Source: Mycobacteriales bacterium (GTDB taxonomy: Bacteria > Actinomycetota > Actinomycetes > JAFAQI01). From it: DNA of 64,000 nucleotides. Where the stretch lies: contig DATAUF010000002.1 of the NCBI GenBank assembly GCA_036268405.1, forward strand, positions 6,910 to 70,909, in the 5' to 3' direction. The translations under genes and the position numbers were made by a program. The notes beneath the pieces are model-generated. The model was not told the DNA's origin and ran no database searches. It saw nothing but the letters and a program-made list of their open reading frames with translations. Of this stretch, positions 7,638 through 42,752 are shown piece by piece. The first letter of the stretch is position 1; each line of letters opens with the position of its first letter.

Positions 7638-7656
7638 GTTTTTACTTTAGATTCAA
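7638..7656 (-). promoter_or_regulatory. AT-rich 19-nt element, copy D (TTGAATCTAAAGTAAAAAC)
   Basis: Reverse complement of gtttttactttagattcaa; ends 1 nt before the ferredoxin ATG (7636). Confidence 0.45.
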
Positions 7657-7669
7657 TAACGGCCCCGGG

Positions 7670-8854
7670 TCAAGCACCGACGATCGAGACGAACGACACA
7701 CAGCTGCCAGGTCGGCCGCCGAGGTTGTGGGTCATCGCCAGCCGCGGGTTGCTCAGCTGGCGCTCACCGGCCTCGCCGCGGAACTGTAGCCAGCACTCGT
7801 AGAGCATCCGGAGTCCACTCGCGCCCACCGGATGGCCGAAGGACTTCAGTCCGCCGTCGGGGTTGATCGGGAGTCGGCCATCGAGCTCGAAGTCGCCCGC
7901 GAGGATGTCCTTCCATGCCTGTCCTCGCTCGCTGAAGCCCATGTCCTCCATCAACACCAGCTCGGTCGGGGTGAAGCAGTCGTGCACCTCGGCGAAGGAC
8001 ACCTGCGATCGCGGGTCGGTGATTCCTGCCTGCTGATACGCGTCCCGGGCGGAGCGGACTACCTCAGGAAACGTCGTGAAGTCGTAGTCCGGGTCCACCG
8101 CACCTGCTCCTGGGCCGGCGACGAACGACAGCCCCTTCACGTACATGGGGCGCTCGGTGTAGTCCAGCGCGTCCTCGGCGCGGACGATCAGCGCGCATGC
8201 GGCGCCGTCGGATACCCCGGAGCAGTCGAAGACGCCGAGCCGGCCGGCGACCTTCGGAGCGTTCTCGATCTTCTCCTTCGTGACGACCGACCGGAACTGC
8301 GCCTTCGGATTGCGCGCGCCGTTGTAGTGGTTCTTCCAGGCGATATGCGTCATCGCTTCGCGCATCTGCTCCGGGTCCACGCCGTATTTCGCGCAGTACG
8401 CCGGGTCGAGCATCGAGAAGGCGGCGGGAGCCGTGACCGACAGCTCGGCGGCGGTGCCGTCGCCGGGCGGGTCACCGCGCAGCAAACCTGAGAACCCGGA
8501 GTCCTTCAGCTTCTCGACCCCGACCGCCATCACTCGGTCGTAGGCGCCGGAGGCCACGGCGTAGCACGCGTTGCGAAAGGCCTCAGATCCGGAGGCGCAG
8601 TAGTTCTCGACGCGTGTCACCGGTTTGTAGTCCAGTGCCAGGGCCTTGCTCAAGGTCAGCCCTGACTGGCCGGAGCCCAGGGTGCCGAGCCAGTAGGCGT
8701 CGACATCCACGCGGGGCAACGACGGTGTCGCGTCGAAGCACTCGCTCGTGGCATCGAGCAGCAGGTCCGTGACCGACTTCTCCCAGTGCTCGCCGAACGC
8801 GGTGCAGCCCATGCCGACGATGGCGACCCGGTCCGCGATCCCATTGCTTGCCAT
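7670..8854 (-). CDS. SCPx-type thiolase / lipid-transfer protein (Ltp-like)
   Basis: 394 aa; VAIVGMGCTAFG N-terminus; nucleophile motif ENYCASGSEA; 1-nt TGATG overlap with the upstream gene. Confidence 0.88.
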   Translation of the reverse strand: MASNGIADRVAIVGMGCTAFGEHWEKSVTDLLLDATSECFDATPSLPRVDVDAYWLGTLGSGQSGLTLSKALALDYKPVTRVENYCASGSEAFRNACYAVASGAYDRVMAVGVEKLKDSGFSGLLRGDPPGDGTAAELSVTAPAAFSMLDPAYCAKYGVDPEQMREAMTHIAWKNHYNGARNPKAQFRSVVTKEKIENAPKVAGRLGVFDCSGVSDGAACALIVRAEDALDYTERPMYVKGLSFVAGPGAGAVDPDYDFTTFPEVVRSARDAYQQAGITDPRSQVSFAEVHDCFTPTELVLMEDMGFSERGQAWKDILAGDFELDGRLPINPDGGLKSFGHPVGASGLRMLYECWLQFRGEAGERQLSNPRLAMTHNLGGRPGSCVSFVSIVGA

Positions 8855-10230
8855 CAGAGCAGCCTGGCCTTCCAGAAGTAGTTGTGCACTCCGCCCGCGG
8901 TGAAGAGCCGGCGAAACGTCACATCAACCCGTGCCCCGACCGCCAACCGCTGCGGGTCCGCGTCGGCGACCTCCAGGGCGCAGCGCCCGCCGCCGTCGAA
9001 GTCGACGACGGCACTGACCAGCGGCGGCGACGGTGAGAAAGCGAGCCGGTCGACGGTGTACGTCGCGATCGTGCCGGTGCGGTTCGCCACCGAGTACGCC
9101 GCCATCGCATCGATCGCGCCGCAGCCCTTGCACACCCGTTCAGGAGGGAGATGCACCATGCCGCAGCTCGTGCAGCGAGAGCCGGTCAGGTGGAACTTCC
9201 ACTGCTCGCCGCGGGCGCTCGGCGGCGCCGCCGGGCGATCGGGATCCGGTCGGCGCGGCGCCTCTCGCGTCAGCTGACCTCGCCAGGTGAGGGAGGTCGG
9301 GTACGAGACCGGCGCACCGGCGGCGAGCTGATCGACGACCGGCCGGCTCTGCCTGCGGCCGGCGAGCCGATCGGTCGCGCGCAGCACGAGTGCGTCGCAG
9401 CCATCGACGGCTGAGACGGCGAGGATCGTCTCGCCGGGCTTGGCCTGGTCAAGAACGGCAGCGAGCCCGATGCCAAGATCCGCTGCGCCGCAGTGCCCGA
9501 TTGGCGAACCGGTTACCTCGGCGGCGTCCGGGACGAGGGCTTGAGCGCGTTTCGCCACCCCGGTGTTCGGCGAGGTCACAACGGCGTGGTCGACCCCGGT
9601 CAGCCCGGCCGCATCGAGTGCTTGTCGCGCCGCTTGCCGGACGAGCGGCTCGTACGTCTCGAGCCCGAACCGCTCCTCCCATACCTCGGCATCGGGTCGG
9701 TCCGGAACGCGCCAGCGGTCGAGCAGTTCGGCCGTGAACGACACCACTGCGAGGACGTCGGCGATCGACTCGGCCGGATCACCGAAGAGCAAGGCGGCTG
9801 CGCCGTCGCCGCCGGCTCGTTCGTCCACCGAGCCCGGTTGGCCGATGCGGACGTCGGAGAGCAACGCGAGCCCGCCGCCGGCTAGTGCGGCACGTAACGC
9901 TGCCGTGCCTGACCGCGCCGAGCCCGCGACATCGGCGGCGAAGCAGTCAGTCGGCAGGCCGAGTGCGGCGTGGATCGCCGCGGCGTTGGTCTTGTCGAGG
10001 TAGGGCGGGGAGGTCGTCGCGAAGTAGATCGCCGAGACCGGCGCCGCGATGTCGGCGCCGAGAACGCGGCGGGCCGCCTCCACGGCCATCGTCGTCGCGT
10101 CTTCGTCGTAGCCGGCGACCACGCGGTCACCGCGACCATTGGCAGCGCCGAGCGCGGTTGCGATGTCCTCGCGCGACAACCGGTGATGGGGCAGGTACGT
10201 CGCATAGCCGACGAGGGCGAATCCGGTCAT
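8854..10230 (-). CDS. HMG-CoA synthase/KAS-III-like domain fused to DUF35 (Zn-ribbon + OB-fold)
   Basis: ATG 10230 (ATGA overlap with the thiolase stop). N-terminal 330 aa align by eye to HMGCS. C-terminus CTSCGMVHLPPERVCKGCG plus an OB-fold segment is typical of DUF35. Confidence 0.8.
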   Translation of the reverse strand: MTGFALVGYATYLPHHRLSREDIATALGAANGRGDRVVAGYDEDATTMAVEAARRVLGADIAAPVSAIYFATTSPPYLDKTNAAAIHAALGLPTDCFAADVAGSARSGTAALRAALAGGGLALLSDVRIGQPGSVDERAGGDGAAALLFGDPAESIADVLAVVSFTAELLDRWRVPDRPDAEVWEERFGLETYEPLVRQAARQALDAAGLTGVDHAVVTSPNTGVAKRAQALVPDAAEVTGSPIGHCGAADLGIGLAAVLDQAKPGETILAVSAVDGCDALVLRATDRLAGRRQSRPVVDQLAAGAPVSYPTSLTWRGQLTREAPRRPDPDRPAAPPSARGEQWKFHLTGSRCTSCGMVHLPPERVCKGCGAIDAMAAYSVANRTGTIATYTVDRLAFSPSPPLVSAVVDFDGGGRCALEVADADPQRLAVGARVDVTFRRLFTAGGVHNYFWKARLL

Positions 10231-11438
10231 GCGGCTTCGAACAGGGCGGCGATTCCCTGCCCTCCGCCGATGCACATCGTCTCCAGCGCGTAGCGGCCGC
10301 CACGGCGCCGCAGCTCGTGAAGCATCGTCGTGAGGATCCGTACGCCGGTCGCGCCGATCGGGTGGCCGAGCGAGATGCCGGACCCGTTGACGTTGAGTCG
10401 TGAGTCGACGTCGCTGAGGGCGACGCCCCAGCCCTGCAGGACCGCGAGCACCTGGACCGCGAACGCCTCGTTGACCTCGATCAGGTCGAGGTCGTCGAAG
10501 CCGATGCCGGTGCGGGCGAACAGCTTGGCCACCGCGGGCACCGGACCGATGCCCATCGTTGCCGGCTCGCAACCGACCGCTGCCCAGTCCCGCAGGAACC
10601 CGATCGGTTCGAGGCCGAGCTCGTCAAGCTTGTCCTCGGCGACCACGAGGCAAGCTGCTGCCGCATCGTTCTGCTGCGCCGCGTTGCCCGCGGTCACCAC
10701 CCCGCCACGGGTCATCGGACGGAGTCCGGCGAGGACGTCGAGGGTCGAGTCCGCCCGGACGCCCTCGTCGTGATCGAAGCTCACGGGCTCGCCCCGGCGC
10801 TGTGGCACCTCGACCGCCACCACCTCGGCGTCGAACGCGCCGTCTTTCCAGGCGGCGCTGGCGCGTTCGTGGCTGCGCAGCGCAAAGGCGTCGGCCGCTT
10901 CGCGACTGATCGCGTACTCGCGCGCGAGATTCTCGGCGGTCTCGATCATTCCGGTGATCGGCCCGAACCGCCATTCGGGCTGCGAGAGCTGCCGGCCGCG
11001 TTCGAGCCGGTCGTAGAGCGTCACGTTGCCCGAGCGGCTGCCCCACCGGGCCGTCGTCGAGACGTACTCGATGTTGCTCATGCTCTCGACGCCACCCGCG
11101 ATGACCATGTCGGCGGCACCGGTCTGCACCATCATCGCGGCGGTGATGACGGCCTGAAGTCCGCCGCCACAGCGTCGGTCGATCTGCAAACCGGGCACCG
11201 CGATGGGCAGACCTGCGTGCAGCGCGGCCCACCGTCCGATGCACGGCGCCTCGGAGTTGGCGTACGACTGGGCGATCACGACGTCGTCGATCCGCTCGGG
11301 GTCGGCGCCGGATGCTTCCACGACCGCGCTGATCACCCGGGCGGCGAGGTCGGCCGCCGGCACCGGTCGCAACGTGCCGCCGAAGCTGCCGACCGCGGTA
11401 CGCCGGGGTGCGACGATCGCCGCACGGCCGGCGCTCAC
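10227..11438 (-). CDS. Acetyl-CoA C-acyltransferase (thiolase II family)
   Basis: QIDRRCGGGLQAV nucleophile region; NGSGISLGHPIGATG and MCIGGGQGIA C-terminal motifs. GTG 11438 chosen (GTGA overlap with the upstream stop); track ORF extends to 11504. Confidence 0.9.
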   Translation of the reverse strand: MSAGRAAIVAPRRTAVGSFGGTLRPVPAADLAARVISAVVEASGADPERIDDVVIAQSYANSEAPCIGRWAALHAGLPIAVPGLQIDRRCGGGLQAVITAAMMVQTGAADMVIAGGVESMSNIEYVSTTARWGSRSGNVTLYDRLERGRQLSQPEWRFGPITGMIETAENLAREYAISREAADAFALRSHERASAAWKDGAFDAEVVAVEVPQRRGEPVSFDHDEGVRADSTLDVLAGLRPMTRGGVVTAGNAAQQNDAAAACLVVAEDKLDELGLEPIGFLRDWAAVGCEPATMGIGPVPAVAKLFARTGIGFDDLDLIEVNEAFAVQVLAVLQGWGVALSDVDSRLNVNGSGISLGHPIGATGVRILTTMLHELRRRGGRYALETMCIGGGQGIAALFEAA

Positions 11439-11659
11439 GATTCGTCTCGCCAGCGGTCCGAGCCGGGGTCGAGCAGCTTCGCGAGGTTCCCGTCCTTGAG
11501 CCACACGACCGTCTCGAGCTCGAGTGCGTCGAGATAGCGGACCCGACCGGTGCGGGTGTCCTCGAGCCGCAGCCGGGGGCCGTTCGCGTCGACATCGATG
11601 GCGACCGACACCGATGCGAACTCACTGTCGACGACGCCCGGCAGCGCGCCGCCAGTCAA
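11435..11659 (-). CDS. Hypothetical small acidic protein (74 aa)
   Basis: TTG start overlapping the beta-subunit stop (TTGA), stop overlapping the thiolase GTG. Third-codon positions almost all G/C. No recognizable motif and no cysteines. Confidence 0.55.
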   Translation of the reverse strand: MTGGALPGVVDSEFASVSVAIDVDANGPRLRLEDTRTGRVRYLDALELETVVWLKDGNLAKLLDPGSDRWRDES

Positions 11660-12168
11660 ATCAGGAAGCCCAACGTCGCGAGTGGCTTGTCGAGCCCGAC
11701 CAGCACGACCTTCTTATACGCCAGCCGGATCTCGCCATCGACGGCCCGCAGCCGGTACGTCGTGCGTCCACCCCATAGCTCGCTGCCACGGGCCTTGGAC
11801 TCGAAGAGCAGGAAGTTCGCCGCCACCTCGACCTCCGCCGTTGCGGGATCCTCGCCGATCACCTCGACGTTGGAGATCACTCGGCGCAGTTGTGACGCGG
11901 GCGCTTGTGCATAGCGCTTGCCCGTGCGCAGCTGCTTGAGCCTGGTCGAGATGCGGCTGCGGTTGTCGAAGATCACCGAGACCGTGGTGTTGGGGTCGCT
12001 GTCGGGATCGTCGGCGGGCACCCAATAGATCGCGTCGTCGGTCCACAACGACTCCCACGCGTCGTAGTCCGACTCGTCGGCATGCCGCGCCTCGCGGTAG
12101 AGGAACTGCTCGATCCGATCCCGCGTGAACGTCGGATGGTCAGTGGCGGGCGGTGCGCTGCTGATCAT
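11656..12168 (-). CDS. Aromatic-ring-hydroxylating dioxygenase beta subunit (NTF2/SnoaL-like)
   Basis: 170 aa; IEQFLYREARHADESDYDAWESLWTDDAIYWVP is typical of the beta subunit; ATGA overlap with the alpha subunit. Confidence 0.88.
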   Translation of the reverse strand: MISSAPPATDHPTFTRDRIEQFLYREARHADESDYDAWESLWTDDAIYWVPADDPDSDPNTTVSVIFDNRSRISTRLKQLRTGKRYAQAPASQLRRVISNVEVIGEDPATAEVEVAANFLLFESKARGSELWGGRTTYRLRAVDGEIRLAYKKVVLVGLDKPLATLGFLI

Positions 12169-13436
12169 GAGGCATCCATCAACGCTCGGTAGTGAGACCA
12201 GAAACCGCGCATGCCGACCTCGTCGGTCGCGCCGCCGATGGTGAACCCGTCGTCGTCGACGCTTTCGCGGTTGGTGCCCCGACTCACCTCGAGCCATTCC
12301 GGGGATCGGGCCGCGACGCCGCGCTGGTTGCGCTCGTACATCTCGGTGTCGTCGGCAAGCAACATTCCGGCTGGTCCGACCGACCCTATCGACTGAGAGA
12401 GCATCCTGCGGTTGAGCTCTCCCGAGCCGGTCAGCTGCACGGCCGTCGAGTACTGCACGCAGTCGTCGACCGCGACCGGCTGGATGTTGAAAACCTGGAT
12501 CTCGGCGACGAAGAGGTTCGGAAAGATCATGACGTGCGGGCCGCCCTCGATCATGATTCGCTCGGCGTCCTCGCCGTAGGCCGCGCGCATTGCGGCCGCA
12601 TACTCCGGCACCCGTTCCGGCGTCGTCCCGAACCATCGCATCGGCTCGGCATAGTTGCGAAACTCCGGGCGCAGGTCGTTCTCGCTGTGTCCGTTGCCGA
12701 GGTTTCGGGTGACCGCGGTCGACTTCTCGCTGTAGAGCGCACCGATCGGGCTGCCTGTCACGCCAAAGATCGAGGCGTGGACGAACTGCGGGTGATAGCC
12801 GTCGGTCTCGTTCTCGGCGAGCAGCTTCCAGTTGGCCTGCGTGCGGTGCTTGAGCCACCCGGCGGTCAGCTCCACCTTGCCCACCGGCGATAGCCGGGCA
12901 AGCCGGTCGAGCTCGCCAGCCGCGGCGCCGAGGTGATCGATCAGTGAGGGTCCGTCGGTGGCAAAGCTGCCGAACACGAATCCCTGGTACGACGCGACGC
13001 GCGGCACAGACGCCATGCGCAGGTCCAGCTTGCCCTTGCCGCCGTAGCCCTGGTGGTAGGGGTAGCCGAGCAGCTCGCCGGTGTTGCGGTAGGTCCAGCC
13101 GTGATATGGGCAACGGAACGACTTGGAGTTGCCCTTGGCCGAATCGCACACCTGGTTGCCGCGATGCGCGCAGCGGTTGAGCAGCAGGTGGACCTGTCTG
13201 TCGCTGTCTCGGGTCATGATCACGTCTTGCGTTCCGAGTGTTTTTCGGACGTAGTCGCCGGGCTCGCCGACCTCGCTGTCGTGGCCCACGAACACCCAGG
13301 TGGTATGCCAGATCTTCGCGAGTTCCTCAGTGAAGATCTCCGGGTTCGTGTAGAGCGACCCGTGCACCTGGCGCGGCCGGATGAGTTGGTCGAACCGGCT
13401 CGGCGCGGTCGTTGCGGGTTCGAGGAGTTCGGTCAC
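12165..13436 (-). CDS. Rieske [2Fe-2S] aromatic-ring-hydroxylating oxygenase alpha subunit
   Basis: CAHRGNQV...CPYHGWTY Rieske motif; ENETDGYHPQFVH mononuclear iron motif; GTG start with GGGAG 8 nt upstream. Confidence 0.93.
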   Translation of the reverse strand: MTELLEPATTAPSRFDQLIRPRQVHGSLYTNPEIFTEELAKIWHTTWVFVGHDSEVGEPGDYVRKTLGTQDVIMTRDSDRQVHLLLNRCAHRGNQVCDSAKGNSKSFRCPYHGWTYRNTGELLGYPYHQGYGGKGKLDLRMASVPRVASYQGFVFGSFATDGPSLIDHLGAAAGELDRLARLSPVGKVELTAGWLKHRTQANWKLLAENETDGYHPQFVHASIFGVTGSPIGALYSEKSTAVTRNLGNGHSENDLRPEFRNYAEPMRWFGTTPERVPEYAAAMRAAYGEDAERIMIEGGPHVMIFPNLFVAEIQVFNIQPVAVDDCVQYSTAVQLTGSGELNRRMLSQSIGSVGPAGMLLADDTEMYERNQRGVAARSPEWLEVSRGTNRESVDDDGFTIGGATDEVGMRGFWSHYRALMDAS

Positions 13437-13451
13437 TGCGGGCTCCCTGCT

Positions 13452-13470
13452 CTTTTAATAGGGATTAGAA
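13452..13470 (-). promoter_or_regulatory. AT-rich 19-nt element, copy A (TTCTAATCCCTATTAAAAG)
   Basis: Reverse complement of cttttaatagggattagaa, upstream of the Rieske operon. Half-sites TTCTAAT / ATTAAAA form an imperfect inverted repeat. Confidence 0.5.
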
Positions 13471-13497
13471 TAAGGCGGCGTCCGGTCGCTGGCAAGG

Positions 13498-15896: not shown

Positions 15897-15899
15897 CGG

Positions 15900-17502: not shown

Positions 17503-17521
17503 TTCGAATCGAGGATAAAAT
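17503..17521 (+). promoter_or_regulatory. AT-rich 19-nt element, copy E (TTCGAATCGAGGATAAAAT)
   Basis: In the 62-nt divergent region between the hydratase operon and SDR 17541; followed by the leader CCAGCAGGGAGCGGCGGAGTG. Confidence 0.45.
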
Positions 17522-17540: not shown

Positions 17541-18338
17541 GTGGATTTAGGCCTCGACGGCGCCCGCGTCGTGGTGACCGGCGGCGCATCGAACATCGGC
17601 CGTGGCATCGTCCACGCGTTCGCTGCCGAACACGCACGAATCGTCATCGCGGATCTTGACGGCGTGCAGGCAGCGAGGGTGCAGGCCGAGGCGACCGATC
17701 TCGGTGCGGCCGAGGTCGTCATGGCGATCGAGGACCTGACGATCGACGGTGCCCCCGAACGGTCGGTGGCGGCCGCGGCAGATCGTTGGGGCGGGATCGA
17801 CGTGCTGGTCAACAACGCCGGTTGGAGCGTGCCGGGCTTTCTCGTCGAGGACACCGACCGCGCGCGCTGGCAGCGGCTCGTCGAGGTCAACCTGTTCACC
17901 GCGATCGCCTGCACCCAGGCCGCCATCCCGTCGATGCGTGAGGCCGGCGCCGGTTCCGTCATCTACATCGCCAGCGATGCGGCGTTCGGACAGATCCGCC
18001 AGGCGGTGTACGGCGCCACCAAGGCGGCGGTGCTCGCGCTCGCCCGCACCACAGCCCGCGAGCACGGGCGGCACGGCATCCGCTCGAACGTGGTGTGCCC
18101 GGGCCTCGTCGTACCTGAAGGACCCGAAGCGGTCGGCCAGTCGAGCCTGTGGGCGGTCGGCCAGGACGCGGTGTTCAACGAGAGCCAGATCGACTACCTG
18201 CGCAAGGACACCCCACTGCGCCGTCTCACCGAAGCCAAGGACGTCGCCGGCGCGGTGTTGTGGTTCGCCTCGCCGACCGCGGCCCGCCAGGTCACCGGCC
18301 AGGTGATCTCGGTCAGCGGCGGCTACACGATGCCCTAG
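17541..18338 (+). CDS. SDR family oxidoreductase
   Basis: VVVTGGASNIGRG, NNAG, YGATKAA motifs; GTG start with GGGAG upstream. Confidence 0.9.
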   Translation: MDLGLDGARVVVTGGASNIGRGIVHAFAAEHARIVIADLDGVQAARVQAEATDLGAAEVVMAIEDLTIDGAPERSVAAAADRWGGIDVLVNNAGWSVPGFLVEDTDRARWQRLVEVNLFTAIACTQAAIPSMREAGAGSVIYIASDAAFGQIRQAVYGATKAAVLALARTTAREHGRHGIRSNVVCPGLVVPEGPEAVGQSSLWAVGQDAVFNESQIDYLRKDTPLRRLTEAKDVAGAVLWFASPTAARQVTGQVISVSGGYTMP

Positions 18339-18363: not shown

Positions 18364-18768
18364 TCAGGCGACCACGAGGTCGTCGCGGCCGTCCGCCTTC
18401 AACCGGTCGATGTAGACCGGGTACAGCGACTTGCCGAGCGGCGCCAGTTTGAGCAGCTGCGCGACGTTGCCCTCGACCTTGACCTTGCCGCGTGCCATCG
18501 CGAACGGCAGGTTGACCTTGCCCTGCCAGTAGGCGTTCTGCATCTCGGCACTCATCGTCATCGTCGCCGACACCACCGAGTCGGTGTCACCGGGGATCAC
18601 TTTGTGGTTGCCCATGTCGAGGACGAACGCCGACTCGGGATCGGTGGAGATGACCCGCAGCACGATGCCGGTCGCCGCCAGCTTCGGACCGATCTCGGGG
18701 TCGGCGAACGCGGTCTCAAAGATGCCGCCGATGTAGTGGACGACCTCATCAGCGTTGCTGAACGGCAT
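18364..18768 (-). CDS. SCP2 sterol/lipid-binding domain protein
   Basis: ATG 18768; 134 aa with AYWQGKVNLPFAMARGKVKVEGN, typical of the SCP2 C-terminus. Confidence 0.8.
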   Translation of the reverse strand: MPFSNADEVVHYIGGIFETAFADPEIGPKLAATGIVLRVISTDPESAFVLDMGNHKVIPGDTDSVVSATMTMSAEMQNAYWQGKVNLPFAMARGKVKVEGNVAQLLKLAPLGKSLYPVYIDRLKADGRDDLVVA

Positions 18769-18809
18769 GTCGGAATCCTTCTTTGGGTGGGAGGTCGAGG
18801 TCGGCCTGG

Positions 18810-19592
18810 TCAGATCTCCGGAGCGGGGACGATGCCGGTCAACACCGCGCCTGCGATGCCGCCGTCGGCGATGATGTTGTGGCCGTTGATCCATCCGGAT
18901 TCAGATGAGGCCAGGAACGCCACGACCCTTGCGATGTCGAGCGGTGTCGCATGGCGGCCGACGAGCTCCCTTACTCCGTCGATGATGTCCTTGCCCATCG
19001 ACTCCTCGAAGTCGACGAGGATCGGCGTCTCGACCGGGCCCGGGCTGACCGCGTTCATCCGCACGCCTGCCTCGACCAGACCTGTGGCCATCGCCATCGT
19101 GTAGACGGTGAGGGCCTCCTTGGAGAAGTTGTACATGTTGCCTTGTTGCGGGTGGTCCTTGAACCACACGACGCCTTCTTCATAGGTCTCGGCGCCCATG
19201 AGGTCGCGAATAGCGTCGATGCGATCCGGCCAGCCGAAGCCAGCCGTGGAGGCGACGTTGACGATGGCGCCACCTGGCCGGAGCCGGTCGAAGAACGCCT
19301 CGGCGAGGTGGCGCGCGGCAAGGAAGTTCACCCGGAAGACAGCCTCTGCGGGATGCGTGCCGGGCAGGCCGGCGACGTTGCACAGCACGTCGAACTCGCC
19401 GTCGAGCTGGCTGAGTGCGCCCTCGATGCTGGCAAGGTCGGTCAGGTCGACCGGGACGTGCGCCTCAACGGGCGCGGTCGGGGAGTTGCGGTCGAGACTC
19501 ACAACACTCGCGCCGCGCTCCATGAGCAGACGCGCCACCGCGTCACCGGTACCGGAGGCAGCGCCCGTTACGACGCATCGCTTTCCATCCAC
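18810..19592 (-). CDS. SDR family oxidoreductase
   Basis: GTG 19592; CVVTGAASGTG and YNFSKEA motifs. Confidence 0.85.
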   Translation of the reverse strand: MDGKRCVVTGAASGTGDAVARLLMERGASVVSLDRNSPTAPVEAHVPVDLTDLASIEGALSQLDGEFDVLCNVAGLPGTHPAEAVFRVNFLAARHLAEAFFDRLRPGGAIVNVASTAGFGWPDRIDAIRDLMGAETYEEGVVWFKDHPQQGNMYNFSKEALTVYTMAMATGLVEAGVRMNAVSPGPVETPILVDFEESMGKDIIDGVRELVGRHATPLDIARVVAFLASSESGWINGHNIIADGGIAGAVLTGIVPAPEI

Positions 19593-19594: not shown

Positions 19595-19613
19595 CTTTTA
19601 ATCTAGAGTATAA
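19595..19613 (-). promoter_or_regulatory. AT-rich 19-nt element, copy C (TTATACTCTAGATTAAAAG)
   Basis: Reverse complement of cttttaatctagagtataa; ends 2 nt before GTG 19592. Quasi-palindromic around CTAG. Shared with the divergent ALDH-P450-FadD operon. Confidence 0.45.
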
Positions 19614-19631
19614 AAGGCGGTGGGTGTCAAC

Positions 19632-21092
19632 ATGACGAATCACGTTGGCGCGGACTCGGAGGCGAATGTGACAGCAGGCGCAACTACCGGCACCGTGACG
19701 TCGAATGCGGCCTTGGCCGCCCCGGCGCCTGGGGAGATCGAGCAGGTCATGCGGCGGCTGCGTGCAACCGCTGCGAGCGGCCGCACTCGACCGCTTGCCT
19801 GGCGGCTGAAGCAGCTCGCCGGCATCGATCGACTACTCGCTGAACGCGAGACGGAGATCGCCGAAGCGCTTGGAGCCGACCTCGGTCGGACCGGCTTCGA
19901 CGCCTGGCTCGGTGACATCGCGTCGACCCGCGCGGAGGCGTCGTACGCCCGCAAGCACTTGCGGCGCTGGATGCGGCCGCGCCGGGCCTCTGTGCCGATG
20001 AGCATGCGGCCGGGCCGCGCCTACTACGCGTACGAGCCGCTCGGCGTTGTCCTCGTCATCGGTCCGTGGAACTACCCGGTGTATCTCACGCTGGGCCCGC
20101 TCATCGGAGCGTTGGCCGCGGGCAACTGCGCGGTCGTCAAGCCCTCCGAACACGCCCCCGCAACGTCGGCTCTGCTGACGCGACTGCTCCCGGAGTACCT
20201 CGACGCGGACGCAGTCGCCGTTGTCGAGGGCGATGCGCGCGCGACCCAAGCGCTCATGGAGCAGGGCTTCGACCACGCCTTCTTCACCGGCGGACCGGAG
20301 ATCGGCAAGCTCGTCATGGCGGCGGCCGCTCCTACCCTCACCCCGGTCACCCTCGAGCTCGGTGGCAAGTCGCCGGCGATCGTCAGTCGCACCGCCGATC
20401 CCGCCATCGCAGCGCGGCGCATCGTGTGGACGAAGTTCATCAACTCCGGCCAGACCTGCATCGCGCCGGACTACGTTCTCGTCGACGCCACGGTCAAAGA
20501 CCTGTTCGTGCGCGAGCTCGGTACCGCGCTGAGCCAGATGCGGGTGGGCGCACCTCAGTACGCGCCCATCGTCAACCGCCGCCAGTACGACCGTCTCGCC
20601 GGTCTGCTCGCCGACAGCGGTGGCGATGTCGCGGTGGGCGGCGGCACCGATGCTGCAACCGGTGCCATCGAGCCGACCGTGATCGTCGAGCCCGACCCGG
20701 CGTCGCCGGTGATGCAGGAGGAGATCTTCGGCCCGATCCTGCCGGTGCTCGGCACAGCCTCGCTCGATGCGGCGATCGAGTTCGTCGGCGCTCGCGCGAA
20801 GCCGCTTGCGGCGTACCTGTTCAGTGCGAGCCGTGCCGAGCAGCGCCGGGCTACCGCCGAGATCAACGCGGGCGGCATGGTGATCAACCAAGCCTCGTTG
20901 CACGTGTTGGTCCCGTCCCTGCCGTTCGGCGGCGTGGGCAACAGCGGCATGGGCGCCTACCACGGAGAGTGGGGCTTCCAGACCTTCAGCCACCGCAAGG
21001 CCGTGTTGGTGAAACGACAGCGGCCGGACCTGTCGCTGATGTACCCGCCGTACACCGCACGCACCGAGCGACTGTTGCGACGAGTGTTCTGA
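19632..21092 (+). CDS. NAD(P)-dependent aldehyde dehydrogenase (class-3/fatty aldehyde type)
   Basis: ELGGKSPAIV and FINSGQTCIAPDYVLV catalytic motifs; ATG 19632 (track start GTG 19620). Confidence 0.92.
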   Translation: MTNHVGADSEANVTAGATTGTVTSNAALAAPAPGEIEQVMRRLRATAASGRTRPLAWRLKQLAGIDRLLAERETEIAEALGADLGRTGFDAWLGDIASTRAEASYARKHLRRWMRPRRASVPMSMRPGRAYYAYEPLGVVLVIGPWNYPVYLTLGPLIGALAAGNCAVVKPSEHAPATSALLTRLLPEYLDADAVAVVEGDARATQALMEQGFDHAFFTGGPEIGKLVMAAAAPTLTPVTLELGGKSPAIVSRTADPAIAARRIVWTKFINSGQTCIAPDYVLVDATVKDLFVRELGTALSQMRVGAPQYAPIVNRRQYDRLAGLLADSGGDVAVGGGTDAATGAIEPTVIVEPDPASPVMQEEIFGPILPVLGTASLDAAIEFVGARAKPLAAYLFSASRAEQRRATAEINAGGMVINQASLHVLVPSLPFGGVGNSGMGAYHGEWGFQTFSHRKAVLVKRQRPDLSLMYPPYTARTERLLRRVF

Positions 21093-21129
21093 TGACGGCT
21101 GTTCTGACGATCGCAGGGAGGATCCGCCC

Positions 21130-22383
21130 ATGAGTTCCGAGCGTCCGCCGTTCGACCCGGTGTCGGTGTCTCCGCTGTCCTTCTGGGACAGCACCGCCGA
21201 GGAGCGCGACGCCTCGTTCAAGATCCTTCGGGACGAGCGCCCGGTGAGCTGGCATCCGCCGCTCGAGGGCTCGCTGATGGAGGCCGAGCAGGACGGGTTC
21301 TGGGCGGTATCGCGCCACGAAGACATCGCGGCGATCAGCAAGAATCCGGAAGTGTTCTGCTCGGGCCGGGGCGTGATGATCGAAGAGGTGCCAGAGGACC
21401 TTCTCGAGGCGGCCCAGTCCTTCCTGGCGATGGACGCGCCTCGGCACGGCGCGCTGCGTCGACTCGTGAGTGTGGCGTTCACGCCCAAGCAGATCGCGAA
21501 GATCGACGAGCAGATCAAGGCGCAGGCACGGCGGATTGTCGACGACTTGCTCGACACGACCGACGGCGACTTCGTCACCCAGGTGTCGAAGCGGCTTCCG
21601 ATGTGGACGATCTACGAGCTGATCGGTTTGCCGGAGGAGCTCCGCGAAGAGGCTGCGCATCACGCCGACGGAATGGTCTCCTGGGCGGACGCGGACGTTG
21701 CAGCGGGCCGCGAGCCGGGCGAGGTGCTCAACGACAGCCTGGTCGGCCTGATCACCATCGCGTTCGAGATGGTCGAGGACCGCAAGACGCATCCGCGCGA
21801 CGACATCCTGACCAACCTGGTGCAGGCGGAGGTTGACGGTCAGCGGCTTACCGACGAGGAGATAGCGAGCTTCTTCGTCCTGCTCTCGGTGGCGGGCAAC
21901 GACACCACCCGCAACTCGACAACGCTCGGCATGAAATACCTCTGCGACTTCCCGGAGCAGCGCAAGCTGTTGGCTGACAACCCCGAAGGCCTGATTCAGC
22001 CGGCGGCCGAAGAGATCGTCCGCTACGCGACGCCGGTGATGACGTTCCGGCGTACCGCGACGCGCGACGTCGAGCTGCACGGCCAGCAGATCCGCGAAGG
22101 CGACTGGGTCGTGACGCTGTTCTCCTCGGCGAATCGCGACGAGCGGGAGTTCATGCATCCGGGTGAGTTCGACATCACCCGCACGCCGAATCGGCACGTC
22201 GGGTTCGGTGGCGGCGGCCCGCACTTCTGCATGGGCAGCATGCTGGCTCGTACGCAGCTGCGGTCGCTGTTCACTGAGCTTGCGACCCGGGCTCCGGGCC
22301 TCGAGCTCGGCGAGCCGAACTATCTGGTGGGCAACTTCGTCCACGCGGTCAAGTCGGTTCCGTACCAGCTGAACGCTCGCTGA
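21130..22383 (+). CDS. Cytochrome P450
   Basis: FGGGGPHFCMGSMLAR heme-thiolate loop; VAGNDTT I-helix; EIVRY ExxR; GGGAGGA RBS. Confidence 0.95.
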   Translation: MSSERPPFDPVSVSPLSFWDSTAEERDASFKILRDERPVSWHPPLEGSLMEAEQDGFWAVSRHEDIAAISKNPEVFCSGRGVMIEEVPEDLLEAAQSFLAMDAPRHGALRRLVSVAFTPKQIAKIDEQIKAQARRIVDDLLDTTDGDFVTQVSKRLPMWTIYELIGLPEELREEAAHHADGMVSWADADVAAGREPGEVLNDSLVGLITIAFEMVEDRKTHPRDDILTNLVQAEVDGQRLTDEEIASFFVLLSVAGNDTTRNSTTLGMKYLCDFPEQRKLLADNPEGLIQPAAEEIVRYATPVMTFRRTATRDVELHGQQIREGDWVVTLFSSANRDEREFMHPGEFDITRTPNRHVGFGGGGPHFCMGSMLARTQLRSLFTELATRAPGLELGEPNYLVGNFVHAVKSVPYQLNAR

Positions 22384-22384
22384 C

Positions 22385-25062: not shown

Positions 25063-25072
25063 GGTTCCTCCT

Positions 25073-26873: not shown

Positions 26874-26888
26874 TTGTCGACGTACGGA

Positions 26889-26907
26889 TTCTAACCTATA
26901 TTAAAAC
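26889..26907 (+). promoter_or_regulatory. AT-rich 19-nt element, copy B (TTCTAACCTATATTAAAAC)
   Basis: Ends 1 nt before ATG 26909; contains TATATT 6 nt upstream of the start codon. Confidence 0.5.
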
Positions 26908-28090: not shown

Positions 28091-28779
28091 GAGGTCGCGC
28101 GACCTAAAGCCGGCCGTCCGCGTCGCTTGGCGTGCGCCTTGAGTGTCGCGTCATCGCACAAGCTGTGCTCGACAATCGCTTGCGCGGTGCGCAGCACGGT
28201 TTCTAGTGGGTCCCGCTTCGGGTTCCACCACTCGGCCGTCCAGTTGAGGGCGCCGAGCAGGAGCATGCGCGCGCTGAACGGATCGAGCTCGGGCCGGAGC
28301 AGGCCCTCCTTCTCGGCGTCGCGGATAAGCAGCCGCCAGATCTCGCCGTACTTGGCTTCCTCATCCAGCTGGTGTTTGCGGATCGCGTCGGGAACCTGGC
28401 CGGCGTTGCGGATGGCGGCGGTGGTGTAGTCGGAGATGCCGAGCTCGTACCGCAGGTGGGCTTCTGCGGCGACCTTGATCCGGCTGATGGCGTCGGTGCC
28501 CTTCGGGAGCGCGTCGAGCTGGGCCTGGACGTGCTCTCGCATGTGCTCGAGGCCGACCGACATCACGGCCTCGATCAGGTCATCGCGAGATTCGAAGTAG
28601 TAGTAGATCGCTGGAGCCTGGATCTCGGCCTTGTCCGCGACGTCGGTCAGACGAGTGCCTGAGTACCCCTTGCGGCTGAGAACGTAAGCAGCAGCATCAA
28701 GAATCCGCTCTCGGGTGCGCGCTGACTTGCTGTCGTCGCCATCCGTCGGACGTCGACGTGCGGCGACTGCCTTTGCCAT
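28087..28779 (-). CDS. TetR family regulator (paralog 2)
   Basis: ATG 28779; HTH RKGYSGTRLTDVADKAEIQAPAIYYYF. Upstream TATGAT-N6-ATG suggests a leaderless transcript. 3' end overlaps the convergent ACAD by 4 nt. Confidence 0.88.
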   Translation of the reverse strand: MAKAVAARRRPTDGDDSKSARTRERILDAAAYVLSRKGYSGTRLTDVADKAEIQAPAIYYYFESRDDLIEAVMSVGLEHMREHVQAQLDALPKGTDAISRIKVAAEAHLRYELGISDYTTAAIRNAGQVPDAIRKHQLDEEAKYGEIWRLLIRDAEKEGLLRPELDPFSARMLLLGALNWTAEWWNPKRDPLETVLRTAQAIVEHSLCDDATLKAHAKRRGRPALGRATS

Positions 28780-28786
28780 TTTCGAA

Positions 28787-29602
28787 TCATAGAAGAGATG
28801 CGCGAGGGTCGTTGACTGCGATCTCGACGGCCTCACTACCGAGGTACGCGGCGCGCACGATGTCGCTCGAGCCGACCTCGGACGCCGTGCCCTGGAAGAT
28901 CGGCTGACCGAAGTCGAGGACGTGAATGTAGTCACAGACGCTCATGACAAGGCTCATATCGTGCTCGACCAGCAGAACCCCCACACCGTGGTTGGTGACG
29001 AGGCTTCGCAGAATCCGCCCGAACGCGATGGTCTCCACCTTGTCCAGCCCAGAGCTCGGCTCATCGAGCAGCAGGATCTTGAAATCGCCGGCGATTACCC
29101 GCGCGAGCTCCACCAGTCGTCGCTGCCCGGTGCTGAGGTCCGCCGGTCGTCGATCGGCGAGGTCACTGATGCCGCATTGGCTCATCGCCGTCCGCGCTGC
29201 GTCGGTCACGACGACCTGGTCAGCGCGCGAGCTGCGCAGATGCCGGAACGGCTGGCTGCCGGCCATGCCGGCCTCTCGGCCGAGGGCGACGTTCTCGCGA
29301 ACCGACAGCGAGTCGAAGAGCTCCATCTGCTGGAACGTCCGGCCCATACCGAGCTGCGCCCGGTGCTGTGCCGACCGGTGGGTCACATCGTGGCCGAACA
29401 ACTCGACGCGCCCAGAGGTAGGGCGCACTAAGCCGGTGCAGGCGTTGAAGGTCGTGGTCTTTCCCGCGCCGTTGGGTCCGATCAGGCCGGTGATCTGACC
29501 GATCGGTGCTGCGAGGCCGATCTTGTTGACGGCGACGTGGCCGCCATATCGGACGACGATGTCGGAGATGACGAGTCCGGCTGCGGGACGGTCGAGTGTC
29601 AT
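28787..29602 (-). CDS. Branched-chain amino acid-type ABC transporter ATP-binding protein (LivG-like)
   Basis: GPNGAGKTT Walker A, LSTGQRRLVELAR signature, LLLDEPSSGL Walker B. Confidence 0.92.
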   Translation of the reverse strand: MTLDRPAAGLVISDIVVRYGGHVAVNKIGLAAPIGQITGLIGPNGAGKTTTFNACTGLVRPTSGRVELFGHDVTHRSAQHRAQLGMGRTFQQMELFDSLSVRENVALGREAGMAGSQPFRHLRSSRADQVVVTDAARTAMSQCGISDLADRRPADLSTGQRRLVELARVIAGDFKILLLDEPSSGLDKVETIAFGRILRSLVTNHGVGVLLVEHDMSLVMSVCDYIHVLDFGQPIFQGTASEVGSSDIVRAAYLGSEAVEIAVNDPRASLL

Positions 29603-30303: not shown

Positions 30304-30336
30304 AGATGCCTCCGACCGATGTTGAACGAAAGCTCA

Positions 30337-30355
30337 TTATTGAAAGTAGGTTCAA
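30337..30355 (-). promoter_or_regulatory. AT-rich 19-nt element, copy H (TTGAACCTACTTTCAATAA)
   Basis: Reverse complement of ttattgaaagtaggttcaa, in the divergent region between the ABC ATPase operon and the surface-module/permease operon. Confidence 0.4.
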
Positions 30356-30399
30356 ATCGGTGTTACGTTACCGCCGTGTTCCTGTCTTGGAAAGCGCGG

Positions 30400-32132: not shown

Positions 32133-32209
32133 TCCCTCGGCCGTCGATCGTTCGCGAACGCGGCTTCGGGCGGCGAACCATCTCCGGCGCGCGCGACGAA
32201 GGTGCCGCG

Positions 32210-37064: not shown

Positions 37065-37098
37065 GACAGATGCTCCTTGCGGTGGTGTTGGCGATTCG

Positions 37099-37731
37099 CT
37101 AGCTGGTCTCAGTCACGATCGGTCGACGAACGATCTCGGTCGCGTCGGCGGTGGGTACGCCGAGGGCGCGCAGCGAGATCTCGGCGAAGGCGACTTCCGC
37201 GCCCTTGCCCAGACGGCCGTCGACGATGCTGCGCATCAGAGCTAACGATCCGCCCAGGATCGATGTCACGGCCACCTCGATATCGGTGACCTCGAAGCGC
37301 CCCGAGTCCACACCGAGATCGACCGCTCGGCGGGCAGCGGGTTGTACTGCGGTGGCGAACAGCGCGTCGGCGTGGTTGAGGTGAACGACCAGGCGAGCGA
37401 ACGCCGGGTCGTCGTAGGCCAGTCCGACGAACCGTCGGATGGCAACGCTCACGAGTTCGGCCGGATCGTCGACCGCGCCCGTCGCCAGTGCTTCGGCGAG
37501 CTCGCGCAGGCTCTCGGTGACGACCGCGTCGACGATGTCTTCCTTGGACTCGAAGTGGTTGTAGAACGAGCCGAGCGCCACGTCGGCGCGCTCGGTGATC
37601 TCGTTGATCCGCAGTCCGCTGACGCCCTTCTCGGTGATCAACGCACGGGTTGCCTCGGTGAGGCGCGCCCGGGTTCGCTCACGGCGGCGATCGGTGCGGG
37701 TGGGTGCGGGGTCGGGTTTCGTCTGCGTCAC
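37099..37731 (-). CDS. TetR family transcriptional regulator
   Basis: GTG start; HTH EKGVSGLRINEITERADVALGSFYNHFESKE. Confidence 0.9.
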   Translation of the reverse strand: MTQTKPDPAPTRTDRRRERTRARLTEATRALITEKGVSGLRINEITERADVALGSFYNHFESKEDIVDAVVTESLRELAEALATGAVDDPAELVSVAIRRFVGLAYDDPAFARLVVHLNHADALFATAVQPAARRAVDLGVDSGRFEVTDIEVAVTSILGGSLALMRSIVDGRLGKGAEVAFAEISLRALGVPTADATEIVRRPIVTETS

Positions 37732-37767
37732 GTCTATATGGTCTCAGGTCTCAGTCGTGAAATGAAG

Positions 37768-37779
37768 TTCAATATTGAA
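37768..37779. promoter_or_regulatory. Perfect 12-bp palindrome TTCAATATTGAA, candidate TetR operator
   Basis: Read directly; flanked by further GTTCA/TTCAA repeats (37766-37806) in the 116-nt divergent region. Confidence 0.4.
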
Positions 37780-37847
37780 GTTTCTTTCAACTATGGGTTA
37801 AGTTCACCTCACGAACCTGCTTGGGTAGGCGTGGCGAAGGGACAACG

Positions 37848-38723: not shown

Positions 38724-38750
38724 TCTGCCGGACCTCGAGGAGATCACCGC

Positions 38751-39803: not shown

Positions 39804-39821
39804 AGAAACAAGGAGCGCACC

Positions 39822-40934: not shown

Positions 40935-40944
40935 CCCCAGCAGC

Positions 40945-41040
40945 ATCGAAGTAGCACACAACTCTCGCCGAACGCCCGCGCGAATCGGACATCAGGTCTC
41001 ACGGCGCCGCGTGGGAGCTTGAGTTGTGTGCTCCTTCGAT
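40945..41040. terminator. Long inverted repeat (20-nt arms, 19/20 complementary, 56-nt loop) between convergent genes
   Basis: Left arm atcgaagtagcacacaactc (40945-40964); right arm gagttgtgtgctccttcgat (41021-41040); each arm lies 10-11 nt from the adjacent stop codon. Confidence 0.35.
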
Positions 41041-41051
41041 CCGAGCAGGGG

Positions 41052-42683
41052 CTAGGACCTGCGCAGGGCTCGCTTCGCTTTGGCGACCGCGCCGCCACCG
41101 CGACCGCTCCGCTTGATCATCGTCTTGGCGGCGACCATGCCGGGGATGCCGCTGATGCCGCCGGTGGGATGGGTGCCGGCGCCGGTGATCCAGAGGCCCG
41201 GCACCGGCGTCTCGTAGCCGCCGAAGCCCTGCGCCGGACGCAGCGGTCCGAAGCGCCACATCGTGGGCTCGACGTGGTAGACGTTTCCGTCCGGAACGTT
41301 GAAGCGCTCCGCAAGATCGGGCGCGGAGTAGACGCGTCGGCCGATCTCAAGAGTGTCCAGTCCTTCATAGACCGTGGCGCACTCCTTGAGGACGCGGTTG
41401 CCGATCTCGTCGCGGACGTCAGCCCAGGGCACGTCGGGGTTGCGCGGCACGATGCCCGACCACAGCCAGAAGGTGTCCTGCCCCTCCGGTGCTTGGGTCG
41501 GGTCGATGGCCGACGGCACGATCCCGATGAAGCAGATCGGGTCGGGCCAGCGCCTGCCGACGACGTTGTTCCACGAGTCGATGTGGTTCTCGTAGCTCTG
41601 CCAGCTCACGATCGGACGGCGAAGGTCCAGCCCGTCCTTGCGCCAAGCATTGTGACGCGGCGTCGTGATCCTGCCTGATGCCGCGACGTCGATCTTCAAC
41701 GTCGTCGTCTCCAACACGTTCGTCGGGATGCGATCGGCGCGGCGTTGCAGATGCTCGGGAAGGACGTCGCGAGGTAGCAGCTGAGAAAGCGTCGCCTTCG
41801 GGCTGCACGAAGCCATGACCTGCGACGCGCGCAGCTCCTCGCCGTCGGCCAGCCGGACTCCGGTGACCGCGCCAGCCGTGACCAGCAACTCGTCGACCCG
41901 AGCCGACGTGCGAACCGTCGTGCCGTGATCGATCAGCCAGGCGTTCAGTGCATTCGTCAGCGCTCCGGTGCCGCCTTCGAACCGCGCCGAGTTGGTGCGG
42001 TGACACATCGCGATATAGATCAGGGCCCAGCCCGTACCGTCCTGCGCCATCCAGCAGAACGGCGGCATCGAGGCGAGCGCGCCGCGAACCAACGGATGGT
42101 CGAACCGCTCCTCGATGACCTCGGCGTGCGAGGTGGTCAGGAAGCTGAGCAACGGCGCGAGATCCTTGCGCCGGCGTACCGCCACCGGGAGGGCCTTGAG
42201 GACGTCGCGCGGGTTCGGGCGGAGTGGGTGGCCGAGCATGAGCGGCATGACCAGGTCCATCGCCGCGTCGAGGGAGTTCGCGAACTCCAGGTAGTTGGCG
42301 GCGTCGTGGGGGGAGAAGTGACGGATCTCGTCCGCGGTCTTGCGGGGGTCGCACCAGAACGCCAGCGACGGTCCCTCGGGGTCCAGATGGACGTGGAACG
42401 GATCGGCGATGAGCTGCTTGAAGCCGTAGCGCGACAGGTCGAAGTCGCGCTCGATCGACGTCGCCCGGAACAGCGACGCCTGGATCCCGCCTTCGTTGAT
42501 CCGGTGGTTCGGAGCGCCGGGAATCACGGCGTTGGTGGAGATCATGCCGCCGACGCCGGGCGACGCCTCGAGCACCGTGACCTCGAATCCGGCCTTGCGG
42601 AGGTACGCAGCAGCCACCAGTCCGTTATGGCCGGCACCGACCACGATCACGTCGGCGTTGCCCTTGGTCGATCCGATCGTCAT
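41052..42683 (-). CDS. NAD(P)/FAD-dependent oxidoreductase, phytoene desaturase (CrtI)-like family
   Basis: ATG 42683 with GAAGAGG RBS; dinucleotide fold VIVVGAGHNGLVAAAYLRKAGFEVTVLEA; 543 aa. Confidence 0.85.
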   Translation of the reverse strand: MTIGSTKGNADVIVVGAGHNGLVAAAYLRKAGFEVTVLEASPGVGGMISTNAVIPGAPNHRINEGGIQASLFRATSIERDFDLSRYGFKQLIADPFHVHLDPEGPSLAFWCDPRKTADEIRHFSPHDAANYLEFANSLDAAMDLVMPLMLGHPLRPNPRDVLKALPVAVRRRKDLAPLLSFLTTSHAEVIEERFDHPLVRGALASMPPFCWMAQDGTGWALIYIAMCHRTNSARFEGGTGALTNALNAWLIDHGTTVRTSARVDELLVTAGAVTGVRLADGEELRASQVMASCSPKATLSQLLPRDVLPEHLQRRADRIPTNVLETTTLKIDVAASGRITTPRHNAWRKDGLDLRRPIVSWQSYENHIDSWNNVVGRRWPDPICFIGIVPSAIDPTQAPEGQDTFWLWSGIVPRNPDVPWADVRDEIGNRVLKECATVYEGLDTLEIGRRVYSAPDLAERFNVPDGNVYHVEPTMWRFGPLRPAQGFGGYETPVPGLWITGAGTHPTGGISGIPGMVAAKTMIKRSGRGGGAVAKAKRALRRS

Positions 42684-42733
42684 CCCGACCTCTTCCGCGC
42701 GGTTCACCCTCAACCTAGACAAGGCTGAATGAT

Positions 42734-42752
42734 TTTTCAATAATGACTAGAA
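42734..42752 (-). promoter_or_regulatory. AT-rich 19-nt element, copy G (TTCTAGTCATTATTGAAAA)
   Basis: Reverse complement of ttttcaataatgactagaa; 15/19 identical to copy A; in the divergent region between the CrtI-like gene and membrane protein 42773. Confidence 0.45.

Follow-up and report, generated by a model that had tools for sequence, protein, structure and literature searches.

Two types of palindromic AT-rich element as candidate TetR-family operators at acyl-CoA catabolic promoters of a Mycobacteriales bacterium

Short AT-rich elements recur between the genes of a 64-kb, 67% GC stretch of Mycobacteriales DNA (contig DATAUF010000002.1; the whole stretch is hereafter the window), many of which encode enzymes of the kind that act on acyl-CoA compounds. 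An initial annotation of these letters had listed seven related 19-nt copies (A–E, G, and H) and a degenerate eighth (here X), read all of them as one regulon, and named two paralogous TetR regulators encoded nearby as the obvious candidate binders. All seven 19-mers are present at the coordinates and on the strands given there. Our analysis suggests that they comprise two types of predicted operator, a palindrome M1 with the paralogues TetR25 and TetR28 as candidate binders and a second palindrome M2 with a third regulator, TetR37, as candidate binder, so that the earlier interpretation is supported in part: the portion concerning M1 holds and the portion concerning a single regulon does not.

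The gene map of the window is based on Pfam domain matches. At the left lie a gene for a short-chain dehydrogenase/reductase (SDR), then a ferredoxin gene (7442-7636, minus), followed by the target unit of site A (7670..13436, minus), which encodes the alpha and beta subunits of a Rieske oxygenase, a thiolase, a DUF35 protein, and an SCPx-type thiolase in a gene order shared with three loci from other genomes (L160–L162). Site E separates a plus-strand SDR gene (17541..18338) from a minus-strand unit that encodes three enoyl-CoA hydratases along with an acyl-CoA ligase and runs from 13498 to about 17460. Site C lies between a minus-strand unit for an SCP2-like protein and an SDR (18364..19592) and a plus-strand unit for an aldehyde dehydrogenase, a P450, and an acyl-CoA ligase (19620..23911). 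Site B has on its minus side an operon of an acyl-CoA dehydrogenase (ACAD), TetR25, and a thiolase (23908..26847, the ACAD gene reaching to 26847 or 26871) and on its plus side a second ACAD gene (26909-28090). Next come TetR28 (28087..28779, minus) with two ABC ATPase genes also on the minus strand, two genes without an assigned family followed by LivHM and LivK (plus), and a DUF7065 gene (minus). TetR37 (37099..37731, minus) has TetR_N and TetR_C_40 domains; beyond it are a gene without an assigned family, a DUF7064 gene, and an APH gene (all plus), a CrtI-like oxidoreductase gene (minus), and a further such gene (plus). An MftR-like TetR gene lies at 43458-44066 (minus) and two more TetR genes at 523-1194 and 51157-51780 (the latter minus).

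The likeness among the sites exceeds that of ordinary AT-rich DNA. When an AT-rich island is defined as a 30-nt stretch with GC of at most 0.40, the window contains 12, of which eight hold the eight listed sites and four do not (1183-1259, 37744-37815, 44105-44151, and 51746-51803). This density is ordinary (12 in 64 kb vs. 257 in 1.49 Mb of other actinobacterial loci), so what is unusual is the similarity among the sites rather than their AT-richness. A de novo motif search assuming one site per sequence gave, for the eight islands, log-likelihood ratios (LLRs) of 168 and 190 at widths of 19 and 22, respectively, compared with 130 ± 5.6 and 140 ± 5.9 for sets of eight real AT-rich islands drawn from 79 unrelated loci; none of 70 such sets reached the observed value (z about 7–8). 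Eight islands drawn from a single foreign locus gave 122–139 and 132–149 at the two widths. Dinucleotide shuffles of 70-nt regions were dropped as a null in favor of these real islands because shuffling disperses the local AT cluster and thereby inflates z. The claim of a related, recurrent element is thus upheld, and the likeness is real but uneven: leave-one-out scores under a position weight matrix were 24 bits for A, 28 for B, 22 for C, and 18 for G, but 10.6 for E, 10.1 for D, and 7.9 for H.

Five of the sites are predicted M1 operators. M1 is an 18-bp palindrome, TTyTAAT-N4-ATTArAA, which comparative data confirm as essentially the imperfect inverted repeat TTyTAry-N4-ATTrAAA read earlier from three of the copies. 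We scored M1 as matches out of the 14 arm positions of TTYTAAT-N4-ATTARAA and counted a match from 11/14 upward; in the window this threshold is reached by A with 14, B with 13, C and G with 12 each, and D and E with 11 each, and by no other position, and H scores below 10/14. Site A (TTTTAATAGGGATTAGAA, 13453..13470) lies upstream of the Rieske oxygenase alpha gene. Site B (TTCTAACCTATATTAAAA, 26889..26906) lies ahead of the ACAD-TetR25 operon, in the gap that separates the two divergent ACAD genes; site C (TTTTAATCTAGAGTATAA, 19596..19613), whose left arm reads ATACT, lies between the divergent SDR and aldehyde dehydrogenase-P450-ligase units; and site E (TTCGAATCGAGGATAAAA, 17503..17520) between the hydratase-ligase operon and the SDR gene. 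Site D (TTTTACTTTAGATTCAAT, 7640..7657) is directly upstream of the ferredoxin gene, its palindrome being shifted by 1–2 nt from the register first assigned to it.

Conservation in close relatives follows the arms of the palindrome. A locus whose ACAD is 94% identical (L001) retains B, C, E, H, and X, with C identical at 18/18 positions, B conserved, and E identical in its arms. A locus whose Rieske alpha subunit is 91% identical (L160) retains A, with one spacer change and one arm change, and D, with identical arms, a differing spacer, and the −35 box and adjacent ATG also kept. Across sites A–E, changes relative to these relatives affect 2/70 arm positions and 4/20 spacer positions, against 61/200 positions in the ungapped 20-nt flanks on either side.

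The degenerate copy X was rejected as an M1 site. Its sequence is present, one base from where it had been placed (28777..28794, minus), with one M1-like arm (TTCGAAT, 28781-28787) adjoining the ATG of TetR28, but the window scan returned no match of at least 10/14 to M1 at its position: a single arm fits, and too few bases separate its two arm-like pentamers. It is conserved in L001, where the arm reads TTCTAAT.

M1 co-occurs with homologues of TetR25 and TetR28 across genomes. We compared 80 genome loci of about 20 kb each, fetched via an ACAD gene, of which 7 encode a TetR25/28 homologue and 73, of equal GC, do not; a further 79 metagenome loci were fetched solely by alignment of TetR25/28 homologues, with the anchor peptides QAPAIYY (from the recognition helix) and LNWATEWW. 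M1 matches occur at 16.7 per 100 kb in the metagenome loci with the regulator, 12.2 in the genome loci with it, and 9.4 in the window, compared with 0.22 in the genome loci without it. The corresponding fractions of AT-rich islands are 87/313 (28%), 17/38 (45%), 6/12 (50%), and 3/229 (1.3%), so that the comparable density in unrelated AT-rich DNA that the initial annotation had named as its own refutation is not seen (1.3% vs. 28–45%). Among the 80 ACAD-fetched loci, strong matches are confined to those encoding a TetR25/28 homologue plus one (L033) with no homologue in the roughly 20 kb fetched. Foreign matches include the palindromes TTCTAATCATCATTAAAAG and TTCTAATGGCGATTAAAAG and, in L011, the perfect 16-bp palindrome TCTAATCTAGATTAGA.

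These foreign sites are intergenic, lying upstream of ACAD-ACAD-TetR operons, of homologues of the SDR gene at 17541 (SDR17), of FadD homologues, and of the TetR gene itself, with matches concentrated 0–250 nt upstream of the last. Such promoters carry M1 in different genera (L003, L004, L008, L010, L011, L033, L060, L161, and L162), including the ACAD-TetR promoter in six of these loci (L003, L004, L008, L010, L033, and L060), while the intergenic position of site E, between SDR gene and hydratase operon, holds M1 in L011, L060, L161, and Gordonia polyisoprenivorans (L162). Together with L001 and L160, these loci bear out the expected conservation at orthologous promoters. Genes adjoining 50 distinct M1 sites in other genomes encode ACADs (10), enoyl-CoA hydratases (7), FadD (6), TetR itself (5), and HpcH/CitE-like lyases (3), as well as alpha/beta hydrolases, and the spacer, which played no part in selecting the sites, shows a preference for CTAG over 49 distinct sites.

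TetR25 (25073..25687, minus) and TetR28 (28087..28779, minus) are FadR-like regulators with TetR_N and TetR_C_24 domains and are candidate binders of M1. They share 53% identity and an identical recognition helix, QAPAIYYYF, which is nearly invariant among homologues (one aligned homologue has YYH instead of YYY). Their closest solved structures are 3dcf, 3vpr, DarR, Bacillus FadR, a Fad35R-like protein, and KstR2; homologues are annotated with generic names only, and in NCBIfam no curated equivalog reaches its cutoff for any of the TetR proteins. In soil metagenomes (L098–L159), a 20-mer with strong conservation, GTTTTCTAGGCACGAnTCAA, is found ahead of most genes of the TetR28 clade and may be a clade-specific autoregulatory site or promoter.

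A second palindrome, M2, TTCAATAnTGA(A), accompanies TetR37. The window contains three exact matches to its pattern, TTCAATANTGA. Site H (TTCAATAATGA, 30334..30344, minus) matches it exactly, in the intergenic region that separates the ABC ATPase genes from those on the permease side, and shares the exact 12-mer TTTCAATAATGA with the opposite strand of site G (G plus, H minus). H is conserved in L001 and L163, and an equivalent site occupies the same intergenic position in L164, whose TetR37 homologue is 73% identical. Site G (42735..42752) is composite, with an M2 core (TTCAATAATGA, 42736-42746), a 12/14 match to M1, and a −10 box for the plus-strand gene. L163 retains the M2 core of G intact and differs at three bases in the other arm of that site, the left arm of the original 19-mer, suggesting that G is an M2 site with possible dual control; the TAnnnT box on the plus strand is still there. 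The third site, absent from the initial list, is a 32-bp imperfect palindrome (37758..37789) centred on TTCAATATTGAA (37768-37779) in the region between TetR37 and the divergent gene without an assigned family; L060 has a perfect TTTCAATATTGAAA at the orthologous place.

M2 follows TetR37 homologues as M1 follows those of TetR25 and TetR28. The exact pattern has seven sites in 83 kb of four loci with a TetR37 homologue (L060, L163, L164, and L165, the last from Sporichthya), compared with one in the other 2.12 Mb, and that one is the orthologue of H in the close relative L001. These sites include the regulator's own upstream region, with further examples in L164 and L165, and the H-equivalent region of L164. 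L164 and L165 encode a TetR37 homologue and neither TetR25 nor TetR28; there M2 is present and M1 has no match. Around the TetR37 homologues, synteny extends to the DUF7064/APH genes, the Liv-type transporter and its ATPases, and the CrtI-like gene, and the recognition helix of TetR37, VALGSFYNHF, is unlike QAPAIYYYF. TetR37 is thus a candidate M2 binder. Since H and the core of G carry M2, the ABC transporter and the CrtI-like oxidoreductase would belong to a second regulon, and the earlier proposal of two TetR paralogues as binders, which fits the co-occurrence of M1 with their homologues, overlooked this third TetR, which H, the G core, and the site at 37768 follow.

These data bear directly on whether all eight sites could instead be variants of one operator for TetR25, TetR28, or both, with TTCAATAnTGA as a sub-variant. 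The half-sites of the two motifs do resemble each other (TTyTAAT vs. TTTCAAT), G scores 12/14 for M1 in both the window and L163, and all eight islands can be aligned at a high score by the de novo search. However, H falls below 10/14 for M1, the half-sites are spaced by 4 nt in M1 and by none in M2, and the recognition helices differ. Furthermore, the motifs dissociate in both directions, M2 being confined to loci with a TetR37 homologue, including those that lack TetR25/28 and M1. We therefore regard a single regulon as unlikely: the different palindrome is found at H, at 37768, and in G, at the least in its conserved core.

Both motifs overlie predicted promoters. Between 7.4 and 45 kb we found four sigma-70-like −35/−10 matches, all of which overlap sites: TTGCCA-17-TATTCT at A (13467..13495, minus), TTGACC-18-TAAAGT at D (7644..7673, minus), TTGTCG-17-TATATT at B (26874..26902, plus), and TAGACA-17-AATAAT at G (42716..42744, plus). 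Hexamers resembling a −10 box were found at all sites. At B and D a TAnnnT box lies inside the operator (TATATT, 6 nt before the ATG at 26909; TAAAGT, 7 nt before the ATG at 7636), and at C TAGATT, likewise inside the operator, lies 7 nt before the GTG at 19592 (minus strand). Short leaders that include a GGGAG ribosome-binding site are predicted at A and E. In all, TAnnnT stands 6–7 nt before the start codon, without a ribosome-binding site, at the ferredoxin (7636), SDR (19592), ACAD (26909), and TetR28 (28779) genes, which suggests leaderless transcripts for these four. The 19-mer itself was rejected as a simple −35/−10 pair, its halves being merely 4 nt apart and the −10 register varying among sites.

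One could accordingly ask whether the shared sequence needs a dedicated regulator at all or is merely the promoter architecture of the organism, a TAnnnT −10 box in AT-rich surroundings of often leaderless genes. This would explain why a plausible −10 hexamer overlaps every site, why all four sigma-70-like matches of the region fall on sites, and why start codons follow the hexamer by 6–7 nt at B, C, and D. Yet promoters are also expected in the actinobacterial loci without the TetR gene, where only 3/229 islands match M1; the motif has dyad symmetry; the −10 box takes differing registers relative to it (5′ arm at A, centre at B, C, and D, 3′ arm at E); and the motif follows a specific TetR family across genera. 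Generic promoter sequence is therefore a very unlikely explanation.

We consider it probable, at roughly 70%, that the AT-rich elements are TetR-family repressor operators placed over promoter −10 boxes and that they are of two types, M1 for TetR25 and TetR28 and M2 for TetR37. Properties typical of TetR operators are present for both: inverted repeats (M1, 14/14 at site A; M2, TTCAATATTGAA), sites in the promoters of the regulators' own operons (B before ACAD-TetR25; 37768 before TetR37), and co-occurrence of motif and regulator. TetR25 and TetR28 would bind M1 at A, B, C, D, E, and possibly G, and so control ACADs, enoyl-CoA hydratases, acyl-CoA ligases, SDRs, thiolases, the Rieske oxygenase and its ferredoxin, the aldehyde dehydrogenase-P450 unit, and the TetR25 operon; TetR37 would bind M2 at H, the core of G, and its own divergent promoter, and so control the DUF7064/APH genes as well as the Liv-type ABC transporter and the CrtI-like oxidoreductase. 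The repressor, bound as a dimer or, like DarR, as a dimer of dimers, would cover the −10 hexamer and the transcription start and thereby block RNA polymerase; at B, C, and D transcription would begin at the start codon itself, so that the mRNAs would be leaderless. The repressor may be released when its C-terminal domain binds an acyl-CoA-type intermediate of the pathway, as in FadR-like TetR proteins. Binding, repression, ligand, transcription starts, and any division of labor between the paralogues are here inferred from sequence. As an extension of this model, the M1 operator could double as back-to-back −10 boxes for divergent, often leaderless genes, with two paralogous repressors that have identical reading heads and different ligand pockets, and that possibly form heterodimers, competing with the sigma factor and integrating two metabolic signals at the same sites across many Actinomycetes; we consider this doubtful, although conceivable.

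That M1 is instead bound by a protein encoded elsewhere, for example of the CRP/FNR type, with the TetR genes as members of the regulon rather than binders, draws on the resemblance of the TAAT-N4-ATTA core to the CprK box TTAAT-N4-ATTAA with its 5-N4-5 CRP/FNR layout (PMC2610375) and on the inability of co-occurrence alone to separate binder from target, but is the least probable account given that neither the window nor the annotated loci showed a gene of the cyclic-nucleotide-monophosphate (cNMP)-binding or CRP type, that the sites cover the −10 box and start as a repressor would rather than lying at −41.5, that DarR, a solved relative of TetR25/28, has the same N4 geometry, and that M1 matches peak directly upstream of the TetR genes as autoregulation would predict.

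Several observations weigh against assigning M1 to TetR25/28 and M2 to TetR37. The control loci without TetR were chosen via an ACAD gene and span about 20 kb each, so that the regulator may lie elsewhere in those genomes, as M1 matches in L033 and L016 suggest. Sites E and D reach no more than 11/14 for M1, and G, at 12/14 in the window and in L163, may be shared by both regulators. Conservation of M1 could partly reflect promoter function, because the motif overlaps −10 boxes and, with its consensus CTAG spacer, reads TAGATT on both strands. Upstream of TetR28 in the window there is a half-site only, clouding its autoregulation and exact specificity, and a de novo search upstream of TetR28-clade genes returned the variant GTTTTCTAGGCACGAnTCAA, which has one arm in common with M1; since that search yielded this variant instead of M1, we do not count it as independent confirmation. 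Finally, the evidence for M2 comes from four other loci.

Other TetR genes of the window also adjoin inverted repeats. Where the sixth TetR gene (51157-51780, minus) starts, an AT-rich island contains a perfect repeat, ATACGTAC-N6-GTACGTAT (51769-51790), which is probably the operator of that regulator. A perfect 9-nt repeat, TACGAAGCC-N5-GGCTTCGTA (44068-44090), directly upstream of the MftR-like TetR gene (43458-44066, minus) and opposite a kinase gene of the EcKL type, is probably a further operator distinct from the others.

The gene content around the sites is itself conserved. The set at 7442-15111, comprising Rieske alpha and beta subunits, a small open reading frame (ORF), DUF35, SCPx-type thiolase, acyl-CoA ligase, and ferredoxin, recurs in L160, L161, and L162, with a ferredoxin reductase added in L160 and L162, and the Rieske alpha subunit retains 75–81% identity across Gordonia, Nocardioides, Streptomyces, Dietzia, and Mycobacterium. 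The set may resemble the ipfABDEF-type system, which dioxygenates a CoA thioester and removes the side chain. At the transporter locus, a 471-amino-acid gene and a 313-amino-acid ORF without Pfam matches (30319-32692, plus) lie upstream of the genes for a fused LivHM permease and a LivK binding protein; their counterparts in L163–L165 are one gene of 457–473 amino acids and two short genes of 126–187 amino acids, likewise without Pfam matches, and these conserved genes are uncharacterised components of the transporter locus. EcKL/APH, DUF7065, and DUF7064 domains, encoded separately in the TetR37-linked cluster (36177-40934), are fused in one 985-amino-acid protein elsewhere in the window (52747-55704, plus), suggesting that the products of the separate genes act together.

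If confirmed, these predictions would provide two specific, widely conserved operator motifs for uncharacterised TetR regulators and would define the regulons of these proteins in a wide range of soil Actinomycetes, with cultured Gordonia, Nocardia, Nocardioides, Microtetraspora, and Sporichthya among them. They would also tie an orphan catabolic cluster (Rieske oxygenase, DUF35, SCPx-thiolase, hydratases, ligases, ACADs, Liv-type transporter, and DUF7064/DUF7065/kinase) to defined switches and would supply high-GC hosts with compact promoter/operator parts that probably respond to acyl-CoA. Our understanding of TetR regulation itself would be unchanged.

Comparison with known systems places the elements near, and outside, several described regulons. 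An RNA element was rejected, as no Rfam family matches the sites and as the predicted transcripts at B, C, and D would begin downstream of them. Word searches of the open-access literature revealed no account of either operator sequence or of the cluster, the only hits being primers, restriction sites, and the CprK box; this is not proof of novelty. That box, the (de)halobox TTAAT-N4-ATTAA of the CRP/FNR family in Desulfitobacterium (PMC2610375), is nearly equal to M1 in core sequence and spacing. In contrast to M1, which overlies the −10 box and tracks a TetR family with no CRP/FNR gene nearby, it serves for activation in Firmicutes, where a protein with a cNMP domain binds it.

KstR and KstR2, which control cholesterol catabolism in Mycobacterium and Rhodococcus, offer a parallel as TetR repressors with palindromic operators at many lipid- or steroid-type catabolic operons, and in gene content (ACADs, hydratases, ligases, thiolases, and a P450). 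However, the operator sequences are unrelated, the NCBIfam KstR model gives 32–33 bits against a cutoff of 280, and neither the KstR box (TnnAACnnGTTnnA) nor the KstR2 box (AnCAAGnnCTTGnT) occurs in the window, in agreement with the initial annotation; the sites do not belong to the KstR or KstR2 regulon.

DarR of Mycolicibacterium smegmatis binds TAGATACT-CCGG-AGTATCTA (ATACT-N4-AGTAT) in its own promoter and in target promoters (PMC10636190). TetR25 and TetR28 match solved DarR chains at E about 1e-12, and the operators share a geometry of AT-rich arms around a 4-nt spacer, but the M1 arms are TAAT/ATTA and those of DarR TACT/AGTA, and no DarR box ATACT-N4-AGTAT occurs in the window. The base-contacting Lys44 and Gly45 of DarR align with Ala and Pro in TetR25/28, a replacement that would fit the loss of a G:C pair as TAAT replaces TACT. 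The N4 geometry alone is shared, and the sites are not part of a DarR regulon.

FadR of Bacillus subtilis and PfmR/FadR of Thermus share the TetR_C_24 domain with TetR25 and TetR28, which match the structures 3whb, 8sv6, and 3vpr. The Bacillus and Thermus proteins regulate genes for beta-oxidation, and acyl-CoA releases them from their sites. Scores of 47–50 bits to the NCBIfam FadR model NF053878, against a cutoff of 200, fall short of equivalog-level similarity to Bacillus FadR. Taken together, these comparisons suggest that the system most likely consists of FadR/DarR-like TetR repressors acting on acyl-CoA catabolic genes, an ordinary kind of bacterial gene control.

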